A stretch of 64,000 nt of DNA from Mycobacteriales bacterium (lineage in GTDB: Bacteria > Actinomycetota > Actinomycetes > JAFAQI01). Shown in pieces: positions 14,310 through 21,670 of this stretch; positions within the stretch are counted from its first letter, which is position 1, and every line of letters begins with the position of its first letter. The translations under genes and the position numbers were made by a program. Location: NCBI GenBank assembly GCA_035690365.1, contig DASSKP010000034.1, positions 9,209 through 73,208 of the forward strand, in the 5' to 3' direction. A model generated the notes under the pieces. That model saw only the letters and a program-made list of their open reading frames with translations, was not told the DNA's origin and searched no databases.

Positions 14310-14936
14310 GTGACAAAGCCGTCCCGCATTTCCCGCGAAGAGCTCGCCCGCGAGAGCGCCACTGCCCTCCCGGACAAGGAAGTCCTCTCGCTGCTCGACC
14401 TCAACGCGAACCTCGACCTCGCGCTGGACGCTGCCGCACCGATCGACCTCGCCATCGGTGCCAACGCCAACATCGCCGCGCCGATCGAAGCGGCCGCGAG
14501 CGCCAACGTGCTGTCGCCGGACGCCATCTCTGCGGCGCAGGGTCAGCAGGCGACGGCCATCGACCAGACCATCACCGGCGACGCGACGGCGCACGGTCTG
14601 CAGGACAGCACGATCAACCAGGGCGCGACGACCGGCGACACGACGCAGCCGGTCGACCCGGCGACCACGAGCACCACCGGGTCGCTCACCGACGGCAACC
14701 TGCTCGACGTCAACGTCAACCTCAACGGCGACCTCAACCTGGCCGCGCCGATCGACGGCGCGGTTGCGGCCAACGCCAACGCCGCTGCGCCGATCGACGC
14801 GGCCGTGTCGGCCAACATCGACTCGCCGGGTGCGGAGTCCGTGGCCGTCGCCGACCAGACCGCTCTCATCGACCAGAGCATCACCGGCGACGCCACCGCG
14901 GTCTCCGACCAGGTGTCCAACATCGCCCAGCCGTGA
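14310..14936 (+). CDS. Cys-free Ala/Asn/Asp-rich protein with an internal duplication, unknown function (candidate protease substrate or precursor)
   Basis: GGAGG lies 5 nt before GTG 14310. The protein is 208 aa with no signal peptide and high GC3. Two units of about 78 aa each read LLD(L/V)N...AAPID...ANANxAAPI(E/D)AA(A/V)SAN...IDQ(T/S)ITGDATA. Confidence 0.75.
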   Translation: MTKPSRISREELARESATALPDKEVLSLLDLNANLDLALDAAAPIDLAIGANANIAAPIEAAASANVLSPDAISAAQGQQATAIDQTITGDATAHGLQDSTINQGATTGDTTQPVDPATTSTTGSLTDGNLLDVNVNLNGDLNLAAPIDGAVAANANAAAPIDAAVSANIDSPGAESVAVADQTALIDQSITGDATAVSDQVSNIAQP

Positions 14937-14956
14937 CGGGCGGCTAGCCGCTTCCG

Positions 14957-17278
14957 ATGACCGCCGTCGATCGGCGTACCGCCGGCGCGGACACCACGCA
15001 GAGCCTGCCGGCCGGGACGTCCCCGCAGGGGGATGTCCCGGTCCTCGTTTCCGGCACGCAGCTGCTCGGTGTCCAGCCCGGTTCGGGATACGTCACTCCT
15101 CCGCTGCTCGTCTGCCGTGCCGACGGGCAGGTCATGCACCTCACTCCGTTGCTGTACGCCGTCCTCGAAGCCGTCGACGGGGAGCGCGGTCTCGAGCAGA
15201 TCGCGCGCTTGGTCAGCGGCGTCAGTGACTACGAGCTGCACGCCGAGGACGTCGAGATGCTTGTCGAGGACAAGCTGCGTCCGCTGGGTCTTGTGCTCGG
15301 TCGCGACGGCACACATCCGCCGTTCAAGCGCACCAACCCGTTGCTGGCGCTGCGGGCGCGTTTCGTCGTCTCCAAGCCGGAGGTCACCCGCCGGATCACC
15401 GCGCCGTTCGCCGTGCTGTTCAATCCGGTCCTCGTCGTCGTCTCGACGATCGCCTTCGCTCTCGTCTCGTTCTGGGTGCTGTTCGAGAAGGGTCTCGCGT
15501 CGGCGGCGTACGACGCCTTTCGTCAGCCGGGCTTGTTGCTTGCGGTGTTCGCCATCACGGTGGTGTCGGCGGGTTTCCACGAGTTCGGGCATGCCGCCGC
15601 GTTGCGGCGCGGCGGCGGTACCCCTGGCGCGATGGGCGCCGGCCTCTACCTGATCTACCCGGCGTTCTACACCGACGTCACCGACAGCTACCGACTCGGT
15701 CGTGGCGCTCGCATCCGCACCGACCTCGGCGGGCTCTACTTCAACGCGTTGGCGGCTCTCGCGATGTTCGGCGTCTGGGCGCTGACGCGTTGGGACGGTC
15801 TGCTGCTCGTCATCGCGGCGCAGATCCTGCAGATGGTGCGGCAGCTGCCGCCGCTCGTTCGGTTCGACGGCTACCACTTGCTCGCCGACATCACCGGCGT
15901 GCCGGACTTGTTCCACCGGATCGGTCCGACCCTGCGCAGCTTCCTGCCGAAGCGTTGGCGACGACCGGAGTCACGCGAGCTCAAGCTGTGGGCTCGAATC
16001 ATCGTCACCCTCTGGACCTTGCTCGTCGTCCCGATCCTGATCCTGACGATGCTGCTGTCCGTCATCGCGTTGCCGCGCATCATCGGCACGACCATCCACT
16101 CGGTCGCGGTGCAGTGGCACCAGCTGATGCAGCAGCAGCACGCCGGTCATGCGGCCGGCGTCGGCGTCAAGATCCTCGCGATCGCCGCGCTCGTGGTGCC
16201 CGTCGGCGGCATCCTCTATCTGCTGGCGCGGATGGTGCGCAGCTACGCCGTCCGCACCTGGACCGCGACGCGAGGCAAGCCGGGAAAGCGCGCGCTCGCG
16301 GGAGTGCTGACGCTGGCCCTGCTCGGTGGCCTGGCCTACGCCTGGGCCCCACGGCCCGGTATCTACCGGCCGATCACGCCCAATGAGCACGGCACGATCC
16401 AGGACGTGCTCGGCTACTCACCACTGCACTCGCTCGTCGCCTCGCAGACCTCGCTTCGCGTCGGTGAGCAGAGCACCGCCCGAACGCTCTGGCCCGCAGG
16501 GTCGGCTCTCCCGACCAAGGGCAACCCCGCGGTCGCGCTGGTCATGACGCCCAAGCAGACCGGCAGCGGCCTGCCGACGTGGGTCTTCCCGTTCGACCGG
16601 CCGGCCCCGCCACGACCGGGTGACAACCAGGCGCTGTCGATCGTGACGACCGACGGGGGCACGGCCTACAACGTCGCCTTCGCGCTGGTGTGGGCCAACA
16701 GCGACAGCGTGGTGAACGCCAACGAGGCCTATGCGTTCGCGAGCTGCACGAAATGCGTTGCCGTCGCGATCGCGTTCCAGGTCGTGGTCGTCGTCGGTGA
16801 CGCTCATCTCGTCGCTCCGGCGAACATCTCCGAGGCGATCAACTACAACTGCATCTCCTGTGTGACCGCAGCGCTCGCCGTGCAGCTCGTGCTGCACGTG
16901 CCGGATCAGCTGAGCGACCAGGCGATGGCGCAGCTCACCAAGCTCTGGGCGCGCATCATGCGCTGGAGCAAGCACCTCAAGGGCCTGACCTTCGCCCAGA
17001 TCGAGAAGCAGATCAAGATCTTCGAAGCGCAGATCATCGCGATCGTCCAGCCGGACCTCGTGCTCGCCAACGCGTCCGCCTCGGCGTCGCCGAGTGCCGG
17101 CGTCTCTTCGACGCCGTCGCCGGGTGCGAGTGCTCTTCCCACGGACAGTCCGAGCGCGGGCACGACCAGCGACCCGAGTGCGTCGGCCTCACCGTCCCCG
17201 AGCGACACCGGTACGCCGTCCGGATCCGCGTCGCCGTCGTCCTCCGACACGTCGTCTCCGGCGCCGACGCCCAGCTGA
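14957..17278 (+). CDS. site-2-protease-like (peptidase M50) polytopic membrane protein with N-terminal PqqD/RRE-like region and C-terminal CxxC domain
   Basis: HEFGH (15578-15592) sits in a TM helix and FDGYHLL lies downstream (the second S2P metal-ligand motif). There are about 8 TM segments, two CxxC motifs (16745-16756 and 16850-16861), and a Ser/Pro-rich tail. Confidence 0.85.
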   Translation: MTAVDRRTAGADTTQSLPAGTSPQGDVPVLVSGTQLLGVQPGSGYVTPPLLVCRADGQVMHLTPLLYAVLEAVDGERGLEQIARLVSGVSDYELHAEDVEMLVEDKLRPLGLVLGRDGTHPPFKRTNPLLALRARFVVSKPEVTRRITAPFAVLFNPVLVVVSTIAFALVSFWVLFEKGLASAAYDAFRQPGLLLAVFAITVVSAGFHEFGHAAALRRGGGTPGAMGAGLYLIYPAFYTDVTDSYRLGRGARIRTDLGGLYFNALAALAMFGVWALTRWDGLLLVIAAQILQMVRQLPPLVRFDGYHLLADITGVPDLFHRIGPTLRSFLPKRWRRPESRELKLWARIIVTLWTLLVVPILILTMLLSVIALPRIIGTTIHSVAVQWHQLMQQQHAGHAAGVGVKILAIAALVVPVGGILYLLARMVRSYAVRTWTATRGKPGKRALAGVLTLALLGGLAYAWAPRPGIYRPITPNEHGTIQDVLGYSPLHSLVASQTSLRVGEQSTARTLWPAGSALPTKGNPAVALVMTPKQTGSGLPTWVFPFDRPAPPRPGDNQALSIVTTDGGTAYNVAFALVWANSDSVVNANEAYAFASCTKCVAVAIAFQVVVVVGDAHLVAPANISEAINYNCISCVTAALAVQLVLHVPDQLSDQAMAQLTKLWARIMRWSKHLKGLTFAQIEKQIKIFEAQIIAIVQPDLVLANASASASPSAGVSSTPSPGASALPTDSPSAGTTSDPSASASPSPSDTGTPSGSASPSSSDTSSPAPTPS

Positions 17279-17290
17279 CGCCGTCGGCCG

Positions 17291-17731
17291 TCAGGCGTCG
17301 ATGCGCTTCAGTGTGCGGCCGTCCGCGGGCTCACCGCAGGCGGCGCAGTGCACCCGCGGCACGAAGACCTCGCCGCAGTGGTGCTCGAGCACCGGCGGCA
17401 TCTGCCGGTGCATCACGTGGGTGTCGCCCCAGTGCTTGAGCGCCATCACCACTGGCCGCAGGTCGCGGCCGGCCTTGGTCAGGACGTACTCGTAGCGGGG
17501 TGGCCGGTCGGAGTAGGGCCGCCGTTCGACGATGCCGAGGTCCTCCAGCCGGCGCAGCCGCGCGGTGAGGATGTCGCGTGGCGCTCCGGTGTGGGCGGCG
17601 ATGTCGTTGAAGCGCTGCACGCCGAGGATCAGCTCGCGCACGACGAGCAGCGACCACTTCTCGCCGATGACGTCGAGAGCTCCGGCCACGGAGCAGAGCC
17701 GAGGCGAGACGGTAGCGGGCGAGGGCGTCAC
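17291..17731 (-). CDS. HxlR family transcriptional regulator
   Basis: GEKWSLLVVRELILGVQRFNDI and the winged-helix pattern are typical of HxlR/DUF24. It is divergent from the thioesterase-MFS operon. Confidence 0.85.
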   Translation of the reverse strand: MTPSPATVSPRLCSVAGALDVIGEKWSLLVVRELILGVQRFNDIAAHTGAPRDILTARLRRLEDLGIVERRPYSDRPPRYEYVLTKAGRDLRPVVMALKHWGDTHVMHRQMPPVLEHHCGEVFVPRVHCAACGEPADGRTLKRIDA

Positions 17732-17792
17732 CCGACCAGTCTCGCACAGTCAGTTGGCAAATCAAACCCTGTGGTCTATGGTCGGCGCCATG

Positions 17793-17809
17793 GGTTGGGA
17801 AAACCAACC
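17793..17809. promoter_or_regulatory. palindrome GGTTGG-N5-CCAACC, candidate HxlR operator
   Basis: Perfect 6-bp arms lie 25 nt upstream of ATG 17834. A related half-site, AGTCAGTTGG (17749-17758), is the 9/10 reverse complement of CCAACCGACT (17805-17814). Confidence 0.3.
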
Positions 17810-17833
17810 GACTCGGGTCGAGAGGACCTCGCC

Positions 17834-18355
17834 ATGACCGCACTGTCGACCGATCCCGTCGCTTCGGCCGTCCCCACCCTCGGCGTGGTCGAGCCGATCG
17901 CCGACCGGCTCGCGCGGCTGGCGCCGACCTACGACGGCATGGACTTCCTCCGCGCCATCCAAAACGGTGAGCTGCCGCCGCCGCCCGTCGCGAGCCTGCT
18001 CGGCTTCGACATCGTCGACGTCTCGCGAGGCGAGATCACGTTCGCGATGACGCCGGCGGAGAAGCACTACAACCCGATCGGCAGCGTGCACGGCGGCGTC
18101 ATCGCCACCCTTCTCGACACGGTGATGGGGTGTGCGCTGCACACTCTGCTGCCCCGGGGGGCGTGGTACACGACGCTCGACATCAACGTCCGCTACCACT
18201 GTGGCATCACGCTGCGCACCGGACCGGTCACTGCGGTCGGCTCCGTCCTCCACTGCGGACGCCGTACGGCGACCGCGGAGGGCAAGGTCGTCGAGCAGAG
18301 CACCGGGCGGTTGATGGCGACCTCGACCTCGACGCTGCTGGTCGTCCGCCAGTGA
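17834..18355 (+). CDS. PaaI family (hotdog-fold) thioesterase
   Basis: GAGAGGA RBS. NPIGSVHGGVIATLLDTVMG is the characteristic PaaI motif. The track extension from 17348 was rejected. Confidence 0.8.
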   Translation: MTALSTDPVASAVPTLGVVEPIADRLARLAPTYDGMDFLRAIQNGELPPPPVASLLGFDIVDVSRGEITFAMTPAEKHYNPIGSVHGGVIATLLDTVMGCALHTLLPRGAWYTTLDINVRYHCGITLRTGPVTAVGSVLHCGRRTATAEGKVVEQSTGRLMATSTSTLLVVRQ

Positions 18356-19761
18356 CGGCCACCGCACTGCCGGTGGTGCTGCGGTCGTCGGCACGGCCCG
18401 GAAGCCATCGGCTCGTGCTGGGCGTCCTTTCGCTGGCGGCGTTCATGGCCAGCCTCGACCTGTTCATCGTCAACGTCGCGTTTCCCCAGATCGCGGCCGA
18501 GTTCGGCGGCGCCTCGCTCGGCGACGTCAGCTGGGTGCTCAACGGCTACACCGTCCTCTACGCGGCGCTGCTGGTGCCTCTGGGTCGGCTCGCCGACCGC
18601 TACGGCCGGCTGGCCGGCTTCCTCACCGGCATGCTCGTCTTCACCGCCGCGAGCGCGGCGTGTGCGGCGAGCCAGAGCCTCTGGCAGCTGGTCGCGTTCC
18701 GGGGCATGCAAGCGGTGGGCGCTGCCGCGCTCACCCCGACCTCGCTGGGACTGCTGCTTGCCGCCACCGAGCCGCAGCGACGAGTCCGCGCCGTCCGCAC
18801 CTGGGCGGCTCTCGGCACTCTCGCTGCCGCTGCCGGACCGGTGATCGGTGGTCTTCTCGTGGAGGCATCGTGGCGGTGGGTCTTCCTCGTCAACGTGCCG
18901 GTGGGCCTGCTCGGGCTGCTCGCGGCGCGCCGATGGGTGCCGGACTCTCGCGACCCGGCGGTGGAACGCGTCCCCGACCTTGCCGGTGCCGCGCTCGTCG
19001 CGGCCGGCATCGGCGCCGTGGCCCTGGGCCTGGTCAAAGGGCCCGATTGGGGGTGGACCTCAGCCGCTGTCGCCTTGGCGTTCGTTACGGGCGGCGTCGC
19101 CCTCGCCGGCTTCTGGGCGCGGTCCGCGACCCACGCTCGCCCGATCGTCGAGCTCAGCCTGTTGCGCGTGCGCGCCTTCGCGTGGTCCAACGTGACCGCC
19201 GTCATGTTCTCGACGTCGTTCGGCGCGGGCCTGCTCGCCGCCGTGCTGTGGCTTCAGACGGTCTGGCACTGGTCGGCGTTGCAGACCGGTCTCGCGCTGG
19301 CTCCTGGGCCGCTGATGGTGCCCGTGTTCACCGCGGTCGCGCAGCGACTGTCGCGGCATGTTCCGGTCGGTGTGCTCACGGCGGTCGGCTGCGCGTTGTT
19401 CAGCGCAGGCATTCTGCTCGTCGCCCTGAGCGTCGGAGAGTCGCCGTCGTACGCCCATGACTTCCTGCCGGGCTGGCTGATCGGTGGCGTCGGTGTCGGG
19501 CTCGCGCTACCCACCATCATCTCCGCGGCGACAGCAGACCTGCCGCCCGCCCGGGCCGCGACCGGTTCGGCGATCGTGACGATGGCTCGGCAGATCGGCC
19601 TTGTCCTCGGCGTCTCGGTGCTCATCGCGATCCTCGGTACGCCGTCCGGATACGCCGGCGTGCACGTGGCGTTCCGGGATGCGTGGTGGGTGACGGCGGC
19701 CGTCGGCTTTGTCGCCGGGGTGGCGGCCGTAGGGATGACGCCGCGACGGCAGTCGATCTAG
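18352..19761 (+). CDS. MFS transporter, DHA2 (EmrB/QacA-like, 14-TM) family
   Basis: GTG 18352 overlaps the upstream stop (GTGA). AAFMASLDLFIVNVAFPQI and LGRLADRYGR motifs, with many TM segments. Confidence 0.85.
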   Translation: MTATALPVVLRSSARPGSHRLVLGVLSLAAFMASLDLFIVNVAFPQIAAEFGGASLGDVSWVLNGYTVLYAALLVPLGRLADRYGRLAGFLTGMLVFTAASAACAASQSLWQLVAFRGMQAVGAAALTPTSLGLLLAATEPQRRVRAVRTWAALGTLAAAAGPVIGGLLVEASWRWVFLVNVPVGLLGLLAARRWVPDSRDPAVERVPDLAGAALVAAGIGAVALGLVKGPDWGWTSAAVALAFVTGGVALAGFWARSATHARPIVELSLLRVRAFAWSNVTAVMFSTSFGAGLLAAVLWLQTVWHWSALQTGLALAPGPLMVPVFTAVAQRLSRHVPVGVLTAVGCALFSAGILLVALSVGESPSYAHDFLPGWLIGGVGVGLALPTIISAATADLPPARAATGSAIVTMARQIGLVLGVSVLIAILGTPSGYAGVHVAFRDAWWVTAAVGFVAGVAAVGMTPRRQSI

Positions 19762-19779
19762 CTGGCTACGCGCCGTTCG

Positions 19780-20649
19780 CTAGTCGGCGCTCTTGAACGA
19801 CCAGATGCCGACGCCGAGCATCGCGATTCCCATCGCCGCGACGATGAGCAGCTCGAGAGCGGTCGACACGCGATAGCTGCCCCACGTCACGCCGGGATTG
19901 AGCCGGGCCATCATCGCCGGCGACGCGTGCAGGTGCGCGAAGATCGTGCGGCGCACCGGGTCGACGGCGTAGGTCAGCGGGTCGATGCGGGTCAGCACCT
20001 GAAGCCACCCCGGCAGGTTCCCGAGCGGAAACAGCGCTCCGGACAGGAAGAACAGCGGCATCAGCAGCATCTGGTTGAGTGCCATGAACGCCTGGAACTG
20101 CGTGATCCGCGCCGCGGTCATCACCCCGAAGGCCGTGAGTGTGAACGCCAGCAGCAGCAGCTCACCGAAGACCGTCACCATCATCGACAGCGAGTAGGGC
20201 ACGCCGACCACGCCCGCGAGCGCAAGGATGATGACGCCCTGCAGTGAGGCGGTGGTCGCGCCGCCCAGGCACTTCCCGAGCACGATCGACCAGCGGCTGA
20301 CCGGCGCGACGAGCATCTCCCGCAGGAAGCCGAACTCCCGGTCCCACACGATCGAGGCCGCCGAGAACATCGCGGTGAACAGGACGGCCATCGCCAGAGC
20401 GCCGGGATACATGAACGTGCGCAGGTTGACGTTGTGCGTGCTGCCGGTCGTGATCGTGGACAGGCCGGTGCCGAGGACGAAGAGAAACAGCACGGGCTGG
20501 ATCAGCGACGTGATGATGCGCAACCGGTCACGGGTGAACCGAATCATCTCCCGCTGCCAGACAACACGCACCGCGCGCAGGTCATGGCGGAAGCTGCCGG
20601 TCGGCCGCTTCACCCTGATCGCTTCCACCACATCGACTGTCGCGGTCAC
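19780..20649 (-). CDS. ABC-2 type transporter permease
   Basis: Six hydrophobic segments. It overlaps the upstream ATPase gene by 4 nt. The pairing resembles DrrB. Confidence 0.8.
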   Translation of the reverse strand: MTATVDVVEAIRVKRPTGSFRHDLRAVRVVWQREMIRFTRDRLRIITSLIQPVLFLFVLGTGLSTITTGSTHNVNLRTFMYPGALAMAVLFTAMFSAASIVWDREFGFLREMLVAPVSRWSIVLGKCLGGATTASLQGVIILALAGVVGVPYSLSMMVTVFGELLLLAFTLTAFGVMTAARITQFQAFMALNQMLLMPLFFLSGALFPLGNLPGWLQVLTRIDPLTYAVDPVRRTIFAHLHASPAMMARLNPGVTWGSYRVSTALELLIVAAMGIAMLGVGIWSFKSAD

Positions 20650-21623
20650 AACCGCCTCCTTGCTCCGAACATGCGCATGAGCTCCCGGTTGCCGACCGTC
20701 TCCGCGTCGCGGATCGTCGTGCCGGTGTGCGCCATGAAGACGTCGTCGAGCGACGGACGCGACACGCTCACCGACTTGATGGCCACTCCGAGCTCGGCGA
20801 ACAGCCGCGGGACGAACTGCTCCCCGGACGGGACGGAGAACGTCAGCTGACCCTCGGCGAAGCGCCCGGTGATGCCGAACTGCTCCTGCAACGCGGCGAT
20901 CGCCGCGTCGTCGTCGACCGTCGTGATCTGCACCCGGTCCTCGCCCACGCCGGCCTTGAGCGCCTCAGGCGTGTCCAGCACGACGATGCGGCCGTGGTCC
21001 ATGATCGCGATCCGGTCGCAGTACTCCGCCTCGTCCATGTAGTGCGTCGTCAGGAAGATCGTGATGTCCTCGCGCTTGCGCAGGTCGTTGATGTAGCTCC
21101 AGATCGACGACCGCGTCTGCGGGTCGAGACCAACCGTCGGCTCATCGAGGAACAGCACCCGCGGCGCATGCAGCATGCCGCGCGCGATCTCGAGCCGTCG
21201 CCGCATCCCGCCGCTGTACGTCGACACGAGTGCCGACCTGCGGTCGGCGAGCCCGACCATCTCGAGGACCTGCGTCATCCGGTCCTTGAGCTCTGCGCGC
21301 GGGACGCCGTAGAGCTCTGCGTGCATGCGGAGGTTCTGGTCGGCAGTGAGGTACTGGTCGAGCGTCGGGTCCTGGAAGACCAGCCCGATGTTGCGCCGGA
21401 CGGCACCCTGCTCCTGCCGCACGTCGTAGCCCGCGACGGTCGCCGTCCCGTCGCTCGGCTCGGCCAGCGTGCACAGCATCTTGATCGTCGTGGACTTGCC
21501 GGCGCCGTTGGGTCCGAGGAAGCCGAAGATCTCGCCCGCCGCAACGTCGAAGCTCACGTGGTCGACGGCGGTGAGGTCGCCGTAGCGCTTGGTCAGATCG
21601 CGTACGGCGACAGCGGCGTTCAT
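20646..21623 (-). CDS. ABC transporter ATP-binding protein (DrrA-like)
   Basis: Walker A GPNGAGKST, signature YSGGMRRRL and Walker B VLFLDEPT. The start is ATG 21623, or alternatively TTG 21653. Confidence 0.9.
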   Translation of the reverse strand: MNAAVAVRDLTKRYGDLTAVDHVSFDVAAGEIFGFLGPNGAGKSTTIKMLCTLAEPSDGTATVAGYDVRQEQGAVRRNIGLVFQDPTLDQYLTADQNLRMHAELYGVPRAELKDRMTQVLEMVGLADRRSALVSTYSGGMRRRLEIARGMLHAPRVLFLDEPTVGLDPQTRSSIWSYINDLRKREDITIFLTTHYMDEAEYCDRIAIMDHGRIVVLDTPEALKAGVGEDRVQITTVDDDAAIAALQEQFGITGRFAEGQLTFSVPSGEQFVPRLFAELGVAIKSVSVSRPSLDDVFMAHTGTTIRDAETVGNRELMRMFGARRRL

Positions 21624-21670
21624 GTCCTGCACGCTAGCCGTCGCCGGTGACAACGGCTTACGTTGAGCCG

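Follow-up and report, generated by a model that had tools for sequence, protein, structure and literature searches.

What is the segment that precedes the membrane protease encoded at 14957..17278 (+) of a 64,000-nucleotide stretch of Mycobacteriales DNA (the window; contig DASSKP010000034.1), and what does that protease act upon? A first-pass annotation had proposed a PqqD/RRE-like segment at 15059-15301, fused to the N-terminus of an S2P protease, that would couple leader recognition to cleavage in one polypeptide. The segment is very probably a real RRE/PqqD-type domain, with peptide docking inferred. The architecture is already known from daptide antibiotics, but here it belongs to a widespread, unstudied actinobacterial gene pair whose likely substrate is a 208-residue acidic protein.

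The N-terminal segment and its predicted fold

The observation itself held. The open reading frame encodes 773 amino acids, with residue 35 starting at 15059 and residue 115 ending at 15301. The 80-letter string given in the annotation covers residues 35-114, so its coordinates include one extra residue (G115), a trivial discrepancy. The PqqD-like pattern is more than chance, being conserved across 24-30 homologues of 45-92% identity.

The predicted structure was next examined; a fold other than a winged helix with a three-stranded sheet had been named beforehand as grounds for rejection. AlphaFold2 models of the N-terminal region and of the full-length protein both gave three strands (residues 35-39, 50-53 and 59-62) followed by three helices (64-72, 79-89 and 96-107), in the RRE order and at pLDDT 85-93. 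Foldseek placed solved RREs among its best hits: PqqD (5sxy; probability 0.99, TM 0.59), the TbiB1-leader complex (5v1u/5v1v; probability 0.97-0.99, TM 0.57-0.61), lasso B1 (6jx3; TM 0.67, rmsd 3.1), TglI (8hci) and TruD (4bs9; probability 0.84). Probabilities for 5sxy, 5v1u, 5v1v, 6jx3 and 8hci were all 0.97-0.99, and TM-scores normalised to target length were 0.57-0.67 for the stand-alone RREs (5sxy, 5v1u/5v1v and 6jx3). However, E-values were only 0.02-0.4, and generic winged-helix domains (PKMT, 5dnk/5dpl; Rv2067c, 8hkr) scored similarly. With the full-length model, the only hits at probability ≥0.9 were TbiB1 and the winged-helix domain of Rv2067c.

Sequence signals were weak but specific. 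Among sub-threshold hits to the excised domain only RRE-type HMMs recurred: ApyI in 20/24 homologues, Pfam PqqD in 8/24, TIGR03859 PqqD in 7/24 and daptide_HExxH in 4/24. No PF05402 hit was obtained for the window protein at E ≤ 1, nor in a scan of the genome. Alignment by hhalign to a small profile of genuine PqqD domains gave P = 2.2e-4 over 66 in-register columns, compared to P = 0.2-0.7 for three control regions. The domain also aligns in register with the N-terminus of the MpaP family. Sequence searches of the PDB with the N-terminal 155 amino acids, the RRE profile and the full-family profile gave only chance-level hits.

The remainder of the protein carries the features of a membrane protease. 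A conserved linker (15302..15421, residues 116-155; NPLLALR.R.VVS.PE.TRR.TAPFA.LF), with many invariant residues and low pLDDT at residues 125-136, joins the RRE to the first membrane helix. The membrane core (15422..16351, residues 156-465) has about seven predicted helices. HEFGH (residues 208-212, 15578-15592) lies at the inner end of helix 191-218, followed by a β-hairpin at residues 226-239, and QLPPLVRFD304G (15842-15871; D304 at 15866, within RFDGYH) follows helix 282-295. Both motifs are invariant in 30 homologues and are predicted to sit at the cytoplasmic face. No PDZ domain is present. The whole protein matched NCBIfam daptide_HExxH in one continuous stretch (residues 51-378, E 9e-27) and YydH/LiaK over residues 185-313 (E 1e-7). 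PF02163 gave no hit for the window protein at E ≤ 1 and only weak hits in 15 of 30 homologues (best E 0.002), while hhalign of the membrane core to genuine M50 proteins from the same and related genomes was weak (P 0.0015-0.017). A Foldseek search with the full-length model, whose pTM was 0.50, returned no solved S2P structure.

The C-terminal domain (16352..17071, residues 466-705), modelled at low confidence, contains four invariant cysteines (C597, C600, C632 and C635) and a helical hairpin. Topology prediction from hydropathy and the positive-inside rule places the N-terminus, and with it the RRE, inside the cell and the C-terminus outside. A low-complexity tail of variable length follows (17072..17275, residues 706-773; 25 Ser, 13 Pro and 8 Thr of 68 residues; pLDDT about 30).

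The interpretation of the first-pass annotation is thus supported, with two qualifications. The RRE-S2P architecture is already published, for the daptide protease MpaP (Ren et al. 2023, bioRxiv 10.1101/2023.03.08.531785). In addition, every curated-model score fell below its cut-off, and the protein is therefore a divergent relative rather than a member of the curated PqqD, M50 or daptide families.

A conserved gene pair and its split relatives

The protease gene starts 20 nt after the stop of a gene for a 208-residue acidic protein (14310..14936, +), the presumed precursor and substrate, which has a GTG start with a GGAGG about 6 nt upstream. No consensus sigma-70 promoter precedes the pair and no intrinsic terminator follows it. 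The acidic protein (pI 4.05) lacks Cys, Phe, Trp and Tyr, and all of its Lys and Arg residues fall within residues 1-23. Its leader-like N-terminus (14310..14384, residues 1-25) carries the motif E11-L12-x2-E15-x2-T18-A19-L20-P21-D22-K23-E24-V25; these positions are invariant in 24 sequences and 81-98% conserved in 79 sequences from many actinobacterial orders. Core module 1 (14388..14621, residues 27-104) is near-invariant. Its residues 27-69 alternate strictly between aliphatic and Asp/Asn/Ala positions (LLDLNANLDLALDAAAPIDLAIGANANIAAPIEAAASANVLS), with a two-residue hydrophobic moment of 1.90 against 0.35 in shuffles (0 of 5000 shuffles reached it), and a Gln-rich part follows. After a variable Thr/Gly/Pro linker (residues 105-128), core module 2 (14694..14933, residues 129-208) is an internal duplicate (moment 1.97 against 0.37, 0 of 5000 shuffles), and tblastn with module 1 also hit module 2. 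An apparent resemblance of the Gln-rich half-modules to curlin repeats was dropped, as Pfam gave no hit.

The acidic protein lay directly upstream of the protease, on the same strand, in all 78 loci that could be tested, and all 6 full-length cases among 31 relatives were adjacent. No third gene was conserved in 80 loci, including any tailoring enzyme or transporter. The neighbours of the pair here are a beta-lactamase-fold protein, an alpha/beta hydrolase, HxlR, a thioesterase, MFS and ABC-2. The protease family comprises more than 3,600 proteins, in at least 575 species genomes, and has no Pfam or NCBIfam model. The acidic protein has more than 3,800 homologues; a profile search of 1.84 billion representatives found only its own family (507 representatives at 50% identity), none linked to a known family. 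Hhalign showed the protease's C-terminal domain to be unrelated to the acidic protein (probability 0.2%). A literature search for five characteristic sequence strings found nothing.

Two related genomes hold a split version of the system. Here three tandem ~70-residue precursors, headed by the same leader motif (EEL..Q/E..G.ELPDREQMSL) and sharing the core motif, accompany a shorter RRE-protease of 609-612 residues. The cysteine domain is carried in the same cassette by two separate proteins (E about 1e-13) whose N-termini read, by eye, as Sec signal peptides. Pfam and NCBIfam scans of the acidic protein, the small precursors and the cysteine domain found no family.

A proposed mechanism and its alternatives

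We favor leader-guided cleavage of the adjacent protein (probability about 0.68). In this view, the cytoplasmic RRE would dock the leader, by analogy with solved RRE-leader complexes, and hold the junction at the HExxH...xDG active site, where the protease would remove the leader. The leaderless product, lacking Lys and Arg, would then be passed to or across the membrane to meet the protease's own external four-cysteine domain. Our analysis establishes the fold as modelled, homology to MpaP-type proteases, the catalytic motifs, the strict gene pairing, conservation of the leader, and homology of the cysteine domain to the separate proteins of the split version. The membrane topology is predicted only, while leader binding, cleavage and its site, export, and the role of the product are all inferred. 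The size of the partner weighs against this reading, as a soluble 208-residue protein is far larger than known RRE-dependent precursors and has no membrane segment of the kind classical S2P substrates have.

The N-terminal domain could instead be a generic winged helix with a regulatory or protein-protein contact role, the acidic protein being a partner, modulator or chaperone of the protease rather than its substrate. The similar Foldseek scores of non-RRE winged helices, the sub-threshold RRE HMM hits and a protein-sized partner without a family match leave room for this. It nevertheless appears unlikely given the RRE order of secondary structure and the in-register alignments to PqqD and the MpaP family. 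The acidity of the domain (pI 4.45) makes DNA binding unlikely, and the leader-like end of the partner, its most conserved part outside the core, recurs on ~70-residue tandem peptides, which is typical precursor behaviour. Less likely still is a classical regulated-intramembrane-proteolysis enzyme cutting a membrane-anchored regulator, such as an anti-sigma factor, encoded elsewhere, with the upstream gene linked for another reason. S2P enzymes usually act in signalling, the HExxH and xDG motifs are present, and the enzyme class is common in this genome, which encodes four ordinary M50 proteases plus one paralogue with a weak M50 match. However, no sigma or anti-sigma gene is conserved nearby, a PDZ domain is absent, the closest scoring families are RiPP leader peptidases, and the pairing is obligatory (78/78).

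It is also possible, though we consider it unlikely, that the leader is recognised and cut as proposed but the product remains in the cytoplasm or the inner leaflet, the external cysteine domain having an unrelated sensing or anchoring role. Export is an inference only, S2P enzymes are not known transporters, and no transporter is conserved in the locus. Retention of the cysteine domain on apparent signal-peptide proteins in the split cassette argues for a shared extracellular step, and the M50 peptidase EpeP is thought to both cleave and export its peptide (PMC10885120). A more speculative and unlikely possibility is that the pair and its split relatives form an unrecognised, tailoring-free ribosomal product system widespread across Actinomycetota, applying RiPP-style leader recognition to an unmodified polypeptide (either ~40-residue cores or a ~180-residue two-module protein). 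The S2P-like protease would both remove the leader and hand the highly acidic product, with its β-strand-like alternating pattern, across the membrane without Sec or Tat, and the four-cysteine domain would capture or assemble it into a cell-envelope structure.

RRE domains are the main class-independent handle for finding ribosomal natural products, and the RRE-S2P fusion has so far led to one class, the daptides. The compact pair described here spans many genera, including cultured Arthrobacter, Pseudarthrobacter, Nocardioides, Leifsonia, Pedococcus, Saccharothrix and Mycolicibacterium strains. If the mechanism holds, leader-guided intramembrane proteolysis extends from small peptides to a protein, and would also point to an unexplored actinobacterial envelope or secreted component.

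Comparison with known systems

Classical site-2 proteases (RseP, SpoIVFB, Rip1; PF02163) share HExxH in a membrane helix, a following β-hairpin and a later N/Q-x2-P-x3-4-DG motif supplying the Asp ligand. The present protein differs in having no PDZ domain and in that its presumed substrate is soluble; PF02163 does not detect it. PqqD and the lasso-peptide B1/E RREs (PF05402, TIGR03859; 5sxy, 5v1u, 6jx3) have the same three-strand, three-helix winged helix as that predicted here, with sub-threshold sequence similarity. In lasso pathways the RRE delivers the leader to a leader peptidase and is needed for proteolysis (PMC10885120), but here it is fused to a membrane metalloprotease rather than to a cysteine protease or radical-SAM enzyme. 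The epipeptide maturation M50 metalloproteases EpeP/YydH and LiaK (NF058609) are likewise membrane RiPP leader peptidases, matching around HExxH, although the score of 32 bits is far below the 225-bit cut-off and no radical-SAM epimerase lies near the present pair.

The closest relative by HMM score among curated families, and the only characterised one with the same RRE-S2P fusion, is the daptide leader peptidase MpaP/DapP (NF041824), published as an RRE-dependent intramembrane peptidase. As here, the daptide precursor is encoded next to the protease and has an acidic EL...P leader motif, in that case ELExMEAP, which is cut after the Pro. The score of 94.1 bits is far below the 300-bit cut-off, and neither MpaB/C/D/M tailoring genes nor an ABC transporter are conserved with the present pair. 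Whereas daptide precursors are short and end in Thr, the partner here is a 208-residue, acidic, two-module protein ending in Pro. The protease is also twice as long as MpaP, with extra predicted membrane helices, a four-cysteine domain predicted to be external, and a Ser/Thr/Pro-rich tail.

A predicted RRE in the N-terminal region

The ORF at 14957..17278 (+) encodes a 773-aa protein, and its residues 35-115 map exactly to 15059-15301. The first-pass annotation had read this segment as PqqD/RRE-like and fused to an intramembrane metalloprotease. Its observation was confirmed, although the string that it quoted spans residues 35-114 and its coordinates therefore carry one extra residue. The protein contains HEFGH at residues 208-212 (nt 15578-15592) and QLPPLVRFDGYH with D304 (nt 15866). 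These two motifs are shared by site-2 (M50) proteases, including RseP and SpoIVFB.

The fold of the segment was next predicted. AlphaFold2 modelling of residues 1-155 with 26 homologues gave strands at 35-39, 50-53 and 59-62, followed by helices at 64-72, 79-89 and 96-107, with pLDDT of about 85-93 over this part. A second run on the full-length protein, using a different 30-sequence alignment, gave the same elements. Foldseek searches of the PDB returned PqqD (5sxy, prob 0.99, TM 0.59 on the target), the TbiB1-leader complexes (5v1u/5v1v, prob 0.97-0.99), lasso synthetase B1 (6jx3, TM 0.67, rmsd 3.1 Å), TglI (8hci) and TruD (4bs9). The best-scoring hits were GdmN carbamoyltransferases. A 2025 survey lists carbamoyltransferases (PF02543) among enzymes carrying RREs (PMC12710340), so these hits probably reflect the same fold rather than noise. 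E-values were modest (0.008-0.4) and unrelated winged helices (PKMT, Rv2067c) also appeared, so the fold search alone is not decisive.

Pfam returned nothing for the protein, and a six-frame scan of the genome with PF05402 did not detect it either. When the excised domain of 24 homologues was scanned, only RRE-type families recurred, all below threshold. NCBIfam gave ApyI in 20/24, TIGR03859 PqqD in 7/24, daptide_HExxH in 4/24 and lasso PqqD in 1/24, while Pfam gave PqqD in 8/24 and the PaaA N-terminal domain in 1/24. Comparison by hhalign of the family's domain with five genuine PqqD domains from related genomes gave P = 2.2e-4 over 66 columns in register, from strand 3 to helix 3. The membrane core, the C-terminal domain and the upstream protein gave P = 0.2-0.7. 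Taken together, these results make the RRE assignment very likely.

Relationship to known proteases and predicted topology

NCBIfam matched the whole protein to daptide_HExxH (NF041824) at E 9e-27 in one stretch, aligning residues 51-378 to model positions 20-351. The YydH/LiaK epipeptide protease was also matched, at E 1e-7. Both matches were far below their cut-offs. The daptide protease MpaP has been described in the literature as an RRE-dependent intramembrane peptidase. The interpretation of the first-pass annotation, an RRE fused to an intramembrane protease, is thus supported, but this architecture is already published. Evidence for classical M50 membership was thin. PF02163 found four ordinary M50 genes in this genome, plus a weak match to a cNMP-binding paralogue, but not this gene, and hit 15 of 30 homologues only weakly. 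Alignment by hhalign to genuine M50 proteins gave P 0.0015-0.017, and a Foldseek search with the full model, itself a prediction, returned no S2P structure.

The same genome also encodes a 712-aa paralogue (locus L003:925-3063; contig C30:26983-29121). Its N-terminus reads as PqqD-like, and it has an HEAGH...LELDGYW membrane core (daptide_HExxH E 2e-38, model positions 7-374) and two C-terminal cNMP-binding domains. This suggests that the RRE-S2P core is combined with different output or input domains, although hhalign of the N-terminus to the RRE profile gave only P 0.056.

Hydropathy and the positive-inside rule predicted about seven membrane helices, in agreement with the AlphaFold2 helices. 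The RRE and the K/R-rich loops (residues 211-256, 297-344 and 425-445) are predicted to fall inside, and residues 466-773 outside. HEFGH and D304 both sit at the predicted cytoplasmic ends of their helices, which would suit a substrate delivered from the cytoplasm by the RRE. The predicted external part holds four invariant cysteines (C597, C600, C632 and C635), a confidently modelled helical hairpin (residues 654-707) and a Ser/Thr/Pro tail. The linker between the RRE and the first membrane helix (15302-15421, residues 116-155; NPLLALR.R.VVS.PE.TRR.TAPFA.LF) is as conserved as the active site but was modelled with low confidence. It may be a gate or a substrate-strand docking element.

The partner gene and its linkage to the protease

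A gene for a 208-aa protein (14310-14936, GTG start, GGAGG RBS) ends twenty nucleotides upstream of the protease. Within this gap (14937-14956) no GGAGG-like site precedes the protease ATG, which is compatible with translational coupling or deliberately low protease expression. The 208-aa protein has a pI of 4.05 and no Cys, Phe, Trp or Tyr, and all five of its Lys/Arg residues lie in the first 23 residues. It is an internal duplication of two ~80-residue modules, each opening with about 43 residues of strict two-residue aliphatic/polar alternation that none of 5000 shuffles reached. No Pfam or NCBIfam family was found for it, and its 507 representative relatives all belong to its own family. 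In 79 sequences, positions E11, L12, E15, T18, A19, L20, P21, D22, K23, E24 and V25 of the leader-like N-terminus were 81-98% conserved. Daptide leaders carry ELExMEAP and are cut after the Pro. The resemblance (EL...E...ALP) is suggestive only.

The protease family has more than 3,600 members, and at least 575 species-level genomes encode a relative. These include Frankiales, Jatrophihabitans, Pedococcus, Phycicoccus, Arthrobacter, Pseudarthrobacter, Nocardioides, Leifsonia, Saccharothrix, Actinosynnema, Planosporangium, Mycolicibacterium, Georgenia and a Nitriliruptorales MAG. In 78 of 80 retrieved loci the acidic protein lies directly upstream on the same strand, while the other two have too little sequence upstream of the protease (under 200 bases) for the partner gene to fit. 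Among 31 relatives of this genome, all six with a full-length protease have the partner adjacent. Clustering of all ORFs within ±6 kb found no other gene in more than about 10% of loci. The most frequent addition was a LytR-CpsA-Psr (LCP) cell-wall ligase, present next to the pair as 15 copies in 8 of the 80 loci (for example L028:3677-5185). This hints at an envelope link in some lineages, although there is no LCP gene in this window. Downstream of the protease (17291-21653) lie a convergent HxlR regulator, a 4HBT thioesterase, an MFS transporter and an ABC-2 permease gene with an adjacent ORF reading as an ABC ATPase. An MFS gene also follows the pair in locus L001, but it is not conserved across the 80 loci.

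Two relatives (genomes G005 and G015; loci G005:C198:1-7000 and G015:C66) carry a split version that supports this logic. Their protease is shorter (609-612 aa), is 41-43% identical over residues 20-490 and gives weak PqqD hits, and they lack the 208-aa protein. Three tandem ~70-aa ORFs instead lie directly upstream, reading ...(D/E)EL.QQ.GEELPDREQMSL(I/V)NAN(I/L)AAP(V/I)NAAVAANVLSDN...Q.N. This is the same leader plus one copy of the NANIAAPI.AA.SANVLS module of the 208-aa protein (BLASTP E 3e-4). Such multi-copy short ORFs with a shared leader are typical precursor behaviour. Two further genes encode homologues of the C-terminal cysteine domain and hairpin of the 773-aa protease (E about 1e-13), whose N-termini read by eye as Sec signal peptides. 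The split form includes one or two proteins with this CxxC...CxxC domain. Proteins that appear Sec-exported and carry this domain support placement of the fused domain outside the cell, and also suggest that the product meets it there.

Proposed mechanism and comparison with known systems

We propose that the RRE docks the leader of the adjacent protein and that the fused HExxH/xDG site removes this leader at the inner face of the membrane. The leaderless acidic product would then act at or beyond the membrane together with the external cysteine domain. Docking and cleavage are inferred from homology, pairing and conservation, and we assign them a probability of about 0.68. The export step is weaker and remains tentative, as it rests on the split system and on the published view that the M50 peptidase EpeP both cleaves and exports its peptide (PMC10885120). 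Alternatively, the domain may be a winged helix that does not read a leader, with the acidic protein as a partner, or the enzyme may perform classical signalling proteolysis. A product that remains cytoplasmic is a further possibility.

Literature searches found no paper describing this family, and none containing its signature strings. The RRE-protease fusion itself is known. This family differs in that it is not covered by any curated model, lacks the daptide tailoring genes, has a protein-sized partner and carries an extra domain that is predicted to be external.
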